A DNA stretch of 64,000 nucleotides. Source: Escherichia coli. Its GTDB lineage: Bacteria; Pseudomonadota; Gammaproteobacteria; Enterobacterales; Enterobacteriaceae. The DNA lies in assembly GCF_045037415.1 (NCBI RefSeq), contig NZ_CP173438.1. The stretch is one strand, 5' to 3'. The notes below the pieces were generated by a model, which was not told the DNA's origin, did not search any database, and worked only from the letters and a program-made list of their open reading frames with translations. Made by a program: the position numbers and the translations under genes. Positions 57,098-57,769 of this stretch are shown here, in pieces; position 1 is the stretch's first letter, and each line of letters begins with the position of its first letter.

Positions 57098-57243
57098 TCA
57101 ACGTAGCTTAGAAACCATCAAATTCATCATACATTTTTTTCATATCAACCCCCTCATAGAAATCATAACCACGTTTTGTGGTTTTTGTGACGTATAAACT
57201 ACATCAAAGGCAAGCCACGGTCAAATATATAGGCATGCTTACC

Positions 57244-57270
57244 TGCACAAAAGTGCACAAATTTGCACAA
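57244..57270. repeat. three TGCACAA direct repeats phased at 10 bp, followed by a T7 run
   Basis: TGCACAAaagTGCACAAattTGCACAAttttttt; a fourth TGCACAA at ~57337. Confidence 0.6.
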
Positions 57271-57769
57271 TTTTTTTGAACGACTTTTTACCCTTCCGGC
57301 CCGCATGGCGGCTGGATCCGTCAAGGATCCGTGCGTGCACAAAAAAACGCGCTTTTTCTGCGCGCAGGTGACGGGGGAACAGCCCGCGTTTCAGGGGGTA
57401 AATAGCATTCCCTGAACGATGTCGCAGAGACACAACAGAATGGCCATATTTCTCACGCTGAGCATGAAAAAGGCGTGAGGGCTTTTGATTTGATGGGGTG
57501 AAAGGTAAGGCCGTCAAAATCGCACTGAGGCAGCGAGAACATGCAGTCAACGCGGTGGAATTGCGTAAGAGTCTGACCGTCGATGGTGGCGATAAACTGG
57601 AAGGCGTCGTGAAATTATCTGATTGATACAGGAGCTGGAGAGCCGGGGCATAAATTTTTTATGCCCCGGCGAAGCAGCAGACAAGCGAAGCGCGTCAGCG
57701 ATACGGCACCTTGCCGACCATACTTCATAAGTGCAAAATACGAGCAAAGAAATCAATGGAGGCTGTCTT

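Follow-up and report, generated by a model that had tools for sequence, protein, structure and literature searches.

The window, which is the whole 64-kb stretch of DNA that was analysed, carries a P88-like prophage (Xuanwuvirus, Peduoviridae). One segment of this prophage contains short phased repeats and a G-rich motif, and it is 93–100% identical to P88-like phages. The position of the segment matches that of a P2-family cos site, as it comes after the replication and cargo genes and before Q, with P and M nearby. The first-pass annotation had placed a candidate cos or packaging region here, between the cargo hotspot and Q as in P2. This order was confirmed, but the site does not directly adjoin Q: in the window the two are separated by about 310 bp of conserved non-coding DNA and by a 610-bp insertion. 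The genes and features around the segment are as follows.

51406–54228, replication gene, 940 aa
54305–55264, ParM-like actin-family segregation protein (PF06406 and PF21523), directly after the replication gene
55667–57046, minus strand, cargo genes
55667–56509, minus strand, cargo gene for a protein of 280 aa that weakly matches Csx27
56549–57046, minus strand, cargo gene for a DUF4760 protein, left of the predicted cos
57243–57409, plus strand, whole predicted cos module as delimited by comparison (left edge from the start of homology, both edges from a satellite match)
58309–59355, minus strand, portal protein gpQ
59355–61106, minus strand, terminase large subunit gpP with an N-terminal helix-turn-helix, the enzyme expected to cut cosN
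from 61228, O gene
from 62121, N gene
63219–64000, plus strand, terminase small subunit gpM (Pfam PF05944, E = 2e-37), running off the window end

The ParM-like gene is labelled 'recombinase' in the P88 record. Defence hotspots are noted in the literature to adjoin cos in P2 and P4. On the cargo side of the window, a promoter-like site on the minus strand (57191–57162) is followed by a strong terminator-like hairpin (57089–57065), located about 20 nt before the start codon of the DUF4760 gene. A leader or small RNA may be encoded here.

Homology among P88-like phages begins at 57244, the first base of the first repeat, and ends at about 57700 in nearly all relatives. In P88 itself, the latter limit coincides with the stop codon of Q. 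The 610-bp insertion (57698–58308) is missing in P88 and lies between a relic Q-terminator hairpin (57643–57672) and the portal stop codon. It contains an open reading frame at 57731–58294 (187 aa, plus strand), for which Pfam and PADLOC gave no match, and a terminator-like hairpin at 58320–58300. The insertion forms another cargo slot, located towards Q from cos, and is comparable with ctx of phiCTX and PAAR/DUF4123/Imm52 of phiRSA1. Both of these phages carry cargo between cos and Q like the window, but they have other hosts and other ends. The block from 57410 to 57700 is conserved as well, and the 42-aa open reading frame within it (57498–57626), which the records of P88 and P88_4B11 list as hypothetical protein, probably does not account for its conservation. 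This frame was considered as a gene and rejected, because its homologs have internal stops and frameshifts. A codon-like periodicity was seen when substitutions were summed over sequences and was gone when variable sites were counted, and the frame is probably no gene. An Rfam search of 56900–58400 gave nothing significant.

Repeats and the predicted cohesive end

Exact copies of TGCACAA are located at 57244–57250, 57254–57260 and 57264–57270, with a spacing of 10 bp, and a fourth copy is located at 57336–57342, 72 bp past the third. They are called boxes 1 to 4 here. All four had been reported beforehand and are confirmed, with starts at 57244, 57254, 57264 and 57336. The heptamer is not abundant, since 10 copies were observed on both strands of the window against 14.8 expected, and four of the 10 are clustered in 99 bp. 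It is also the sole exact 7-mer in the 64 kb with three copies at a period of 8–12 bp; any 7-mer array of such a period appeared in one of 300 first-order Markov simulations of the window. The full layout pattern (three boxes, about 70 bp, box 4, about 25 bp, GGYG) has a single match in the window, at 57244. A better cos match elsewhere, which would have spoken against the assignment, was not found in the window.

The G-rich motif GGTGACGGGGGAACAGCC occupies 57367–57384, one base to the left of the position 57368–57385 that had been given for it. Its described loose likeness to the P2 and 186 end holds in so far as it falls at the right place in the alignment, with one 1-nt gap inside the end. 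More than three positions differ from the P2 end, and the P2 end GGCGAGGCGGGGAAAGCAC has no match with three or fewer mismatches anywhere in the 64-kb window. The string GGTGACGGGGG is also found at 10793, without boxes there. The likeness of the motif to the P2 end appears weak when it is taken alone, and it would be convincing only in its context. The divergence at more than three positions would suit a fortuitous likeness, with packaging from another site or by the headful mode. We regard this as extremely improbable, considering that the layout is unique in the window, conserved across genera and common to satellites, and that the terminase is of the P2 type. The parts of the module, read as a cos site, are the following.

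57244–57270, plus strand, boxes 1–3, with first bases 123, 113 and 103 bp upstream of the predicted start of the end
57271–57279, plus strand, T7-GA tract, directly after box 3
57280–57335, plus strand, spacer with the partly conserved motifs CCCTTCC, CCGC-ATG-GCGG and GGATCC-GTCAA-GGATCC (57314–57330)
57336–57347, plus strand, box 4 (TGCACAA at 57336–57342) and A tract, with the first base 31 bp upstream of the predicted end
57347–57365, minus strand, GC-rich hairpin ACGCGC-TTTTTCT-GCGCGC, followed by a T run on the minus strand and abutting the predicted cutting site
57367–57385, plus strand, predicted cosN GGTGACGGGGGAACAGCCC, aligned with the 19-nt ends that are annotated for P2 and 186
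57386–57409, plus strand, right flank of the predicted cos (GCGTTTCAGGGGGTAAAT...), the last stretch common with the satellite and partly conserved in the P88-type set

The T7-GA tract, which may bend DNA, is present in Enterobacter and Klebsiella relatives and in the satellite, and it is absent in P2, 186 and P4. The spacer has a constant length and a varying sequence, and it holds box 4 at 72 bp from box 3. Its small GC-rich inverted repeat returns in relatives with different letters (CCGCC/GGCGG versus CCACC/GGTGG). The hairpin at 57347–57365 has the appearance of a terminator that points leftward, out of the Q-P operon, and its role is uncertain. P2, P4 and 186 have an analogous hairpin with TTTTAATGCA between box 4 and the cutting site, and an equivalent is weak or absent in some relatives.

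Comparison with known cos sites

Each offset is the distance between the opening T or C of a TGCA-type box and the first base of the end. Cohesive ends are annotated in the records of P2 and 186 (19-nt) and of phiCTX (21-nt), and the records of P4, PSP3 and phiRSA1 are linear and end at the same junction. Fourteen elements (P2, 186, PSP3, phiRSA1, phiCTX, P88, Enterobacter, Klebsiella and E. coli prophages, and two satellites) have TGCA-type (YGCA) boxes that precede the end by about 123, 111–113, 101–103 and 29–31 bp. In the alignment with the P2, 186 and P4 cos sites, which had been proposed as a check, the distances of the repeats and of the G-rich motif from the annotated ends are the same. 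The box positions in bp upstream of the end are listed below.

P2: 123, 111, 101, 29
P4 and 186: 124, 111, 101, 29
PSP3: 120, 111, 101, 29
phiRSA1 (TGCAT): 129, 110, 100, 29
phiCTX (GCAG-type): 109, 99, 37, 28
Two Klebsiella elements: 120–121, 110–111, 100–101, 38, 29
Window (predicted end), P88, Enterobacter phiT5282H and the E. coli XYEH3783 prophage: 123, 113, 103, 31
E. coli ES1 prophage: 123, 111, 103, 37, 31
Satellite-like island of E. coli 600468: 123, 113, 103, 31

The box sequence is TGCAT in P2, 186, PSP3, phiRSA1 and P4 and TGCACAA in the P88 group. Across the groups the sequence between the boxes is unrelated, and the spacing is kept. The boxes of the P88 type are all 2 nt further from GGTG than those of the P2 type are from GGCG. 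Because this 2-nt shift relative to P2 is coherent, the nick could be 1–2 nt off the prediction. The top-strand nick is predicted just before 57367, with the length of the end and the nick positions given to within about 2 nt on either side; GTGACGGGGGAACAGCCCGCG is an example of a sequence beginning after the predicted nick. The predicted end GGTGACGGGGGAACAGCCC is identical or near-identical in Enterobacter phage phiT5282H, in E. coli prophages and in the satellite. It is preceded by GCGCGCA and followed by GCG, flanks that are common to the window, P2, P4, 186 and Klebsiella phages. The Klebsiella phages have GGCGAGGCGGGGGAGCAAG at the position of the end, which by its letters is a bridge between the P2 end and the motif of the window. 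The end reported for phiRSA1, GGTGAGGCGGGGTCCAAC, has a GGTGA start (PMC5694545) and is likewise intermediate between the P2 form and that of the window.

The site in the window thus shares with the P2, 186 and P4 cos sites its position, P2-type terminase genes, a G-rich end with GCGC-rich flanks, four TGCA-type boxes, a hairpin between box 4 and the end, and the sharing of the site with a satellite. It differs from them in the end (GGCGAGGCGGGGAAAGCAC there, GGTGACGGGGGAACAGCCC here), in the box sequence, in the T7 tract after box 3 and in the boxes lying 2 nt further out. The ends of P2 and 186 are annotated, whereas those in the window are predicted from comparison. In phiCTX, 'R3-R6 repeats' are annotated around cos and the attachment site adjoins cos; the host and the end are different. 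The P2 and P4 cos sites were reportedly mapped by Ziermann and Calendar in 1990, which is said to be the source of the '55-bp core'. This 55-bp conserved core is the quoted extent of the P2-family cos (PMC5694545). The P88 genome paper never mentions cos, and a cos annotation was absent from every P88-like record examined.

The cos site of phage lambda is composed of cosQ, cosN and cosB, with R3-I1-R2-R1 sites for the winged helix of the small subunit gpNu1 and for IHF, and it gives a 12-nt overhang. The site in the window is analogous to it in three respects: partial dyads flank the site of nicking, short repeats that are proposed to position the terminase are clustered close by, and the spacing suggests bent DNA. 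On the other hand, there is no sequence similarity between the two sites, and the overhang of lambda is 12 nt against about 19 nt predicted here. The lambda repeats are on the terminase-gene side of cosN, whereas the boxes of the window are on the far side, away from Q, P and M. In addition, gpM (PF05944) is unrelated to lambda gpNu1. By this comparison the site is not a member of the lambda cosB family, and the likeness would be functional only.

Conservation and sharing with satellites

An exact-pattern scan of viral contigs matched at least 120 contigs, of which 80 loci were fetched; the pattern spans the junction, so that cut ends are invisible to it. All 80 loci belong to P2-like phages, with portals 68–100% identical to the portal of the window. 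Satellites were sought among these 80 contigs and rejected, as all of them carry a portal and/or a P2-type replication gene. Of the viral loci, 78 extend far enough upstream for a comparison, and the four boxes have identical offsets in 74 of them. Among 73 distinct homologous regions of this set, in which conservation of the core follows from the construction of the pattern search, 57244–57279 and 57336–57346 are at least 95% conserved and the spacer is partly conserved. No conservation was found to the left of 57244 across the same 73 regions. The module of the window is present in 1153 of 5426 complete E. coli genomes, about a fifth, ST131 included, in which a match of 100% occurs.

None of the 32 matching phage records starts or ends at the site. 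LR595891.1 (P88_4B11), which was deposited as linear, starts inside the module: its positions 1–60 begin at the equivalent of 57289 in the window, between boxes 3 and 4, and its opposite end carries the rest of the module. The start of this record looks arbitrary. Since it falls within the cos module, the ends of the record are not physical ends.

The satellite P4 is said to share only the cos region with P2 (PMC9122126, PMC9594776). P4 has four TGCAT boxes at offsets of the P2/186 type, with different spacers. A divergent match to the module of the window (81% identity) was found in a 12.6-kb satellite-like island between hpt and gcd of E. coli 600468 (NZ_CP025849.1, about 553.7–566.4 kb), whose cos module is of the P88 type. 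The products encoded on the island are two integrases, an Icd-like protein, a Toprim primase, an Ogr/Delta protein, MazEF and a P2-family major capsid protein of its own (PF05125), the N-terminus of which is extended by 120 aa. Genes for a portal or a terminase are lacking, and so are sid and psu, the genes defining P4-like satellites. When the 21.7-kb island region was compared with the window by blastn, three matches were obtained, namely 57243–57409, part of the integrase gene and a 36-bp fragment. An island without portal or terminase shares essentially only 57243–57409 with the window, and P4 does likewise with the P2 type, which is indirect evidence that the module suffices for packaging in trans and is borrowed by satellites. 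In the reverse search, the cos-ogr segment of the island was present at full length in 55 of 5426 complete E. coli genomes, and about 410 further genomes match only the 167-bp cos module of the island. The borrowing of the same module by two unrelated satellites from different helper lineages is the strongest evidence obtained in this comparison for a packaging signal, boxes included. The earlier suggestion that phased repeats suit terminase recognition fits this retention of the boxes, of the P2/186 type in P4 and of the P88 type in the island.

The constancy of the module also bears on a transcriptional role for the repeats, as a cargo operator or promoter or as Cox- or Apl-type sites that lie beside cos by coincidence. 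Boxes 1–3 of P2 are 28–54 bp upstream of the old-tin transcript starts, and the promoter-like site of the window at 57191–57162 is on the minus strand, both of which would agree with such control. The sites of Apl are described as direct repeats one helical turn apart (PMC7498355), which is also the arrangement of boxes 1–3. However, the neighbouring gene varies (old in P2, psu in P4, orf97 in 186, DUF4760 in the window and integrase in the satellite), and the distance from the boxes to cosN stays constant within about 2 bp despite these varying neighbours. Furthermore, homology begins at box 1 and leaves out the cargo side. The attachment site and the early-promoter region are elsewhere, with the integrase at about 45.3–46.3 kb. 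A purely transcriptional function is very unlikely in our judgement. A second role for the boxes may exist, as boxes 1–3 of P2 overlap the old promoter region.

Probable terminase recognition and implications

Considering the position, the box offsets, the bridging ends and the satellites, which all support the original packaging proposal, 57243–57409 is very probably the cos packaging site of a P88-like prophage of the P2 family. Judged from sequence comparison, it is most likely a P2-family cos in its P88-lineage form, which is an expected kind of feature at this place. On the same comparison, the boxes are most likely terminase recognition sites. Boxes 1–3 are one turn apart, and box 4 is about seven turns from box 3 and about three from the nick. 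Therefore, all of them would lie near one face of the helix.

The module could also be cos with the boxes bound by a host architectural protein and only the G-rich core read by terminase. In favour of this, IHF acts in such a way at cosB of lambda, boxes 3 and 4 are bordered by A/T tracts, and a base-pair-exact spacing suits a bending protein too. We consider this quite unlikely, because P2, 186 and P88 all grow in E. coli with different boxes and each satellite has the box type of one phage lineage. Moreover, no good IHF consensus was seen in 57270–57335 on inspection by eye. That the boxes of P2 and 186 differ from those of P88 within one host points to a reader encoded by the phage and away from a host protein.

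Two equal candidates for this reader of the boxes are gpM, which is plausible, and the N-terminal helix-turn-helix of gpP. The gpM of the window is 38% identical to P2 gpM, and a search for a solved gpM structure found none. The helix-turn-helix RQRARQLYWQGYPPAEISRLMGINPNTIYAWKKRD is in residues ~1–50 of gpP (60960–61106 in the window), and the record of the 186 gpP homolog notes a helix-turn-helix motif. The putative recognition helix of gpP has TVQSWK/TVHSWK in the TGCAT group versus TIYAWK/TVYSWK in the TGCACAA group. Whether the box type covaries with gpM or with the helix-turn-helix of gpP was considered as a test of the reader and set aside, since the box type simply follows phylogeny.

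With terminase as the reader of the boxes, packaging could proceed as follows. After excision and replication, terminase (gpP and gpM) would assemble on the boxes, which would be read by gpM or by the N-terminal helix-turn-helix of gpP. The fixed spacing would let the bound proteins bend or wrap the DNA and so place the gpP nuclease on cosN. Staggered nicks by gpP, starting from just before 57367, would then produce 5' ends that protrude by about 19 nt (GGTGACGGGGGAACAGCCC). Once the genome is linear and mature, the boxes would lie 100–123 bp from its right end, on the cargo and replication side, and Q and P would be at the left end. The boxes also lie towards the right end in the P2 record. 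The box sequence of a lineage would set which DNA its terminase packages and hence which satellites are carried.

Locating cos fixes the true ends of P88-like genomes and anchors the two flanking cargo hotspots. The packaging signal is compact, about 170 bp, and could possibly be used in P88-based cosmids or transducing particles. The comparison of the boxes also offers a testable rule for which helper lineage packages which satellite. The main gain is that the module is delimited and that a box-spacing rule common to satellites is obtained, and the general picture of P2-family packaging is unchanged. A broader proposal, which we put forward tentatively and with more doubt than confidence, is that the phased YGCA boxes might be an undescribed terminase-recognition element throughout the Peduoviridae, with TGCAT, TGCACAA and GCAGRR forming a packaging-specificity code. 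If so, the functional cos would extend well past the quoted 55-bp core. The code would then decide which satellites are mobilised, P4 by P2 and 186 and the capsid-encoding hpt-gcd island by P88-like phages.
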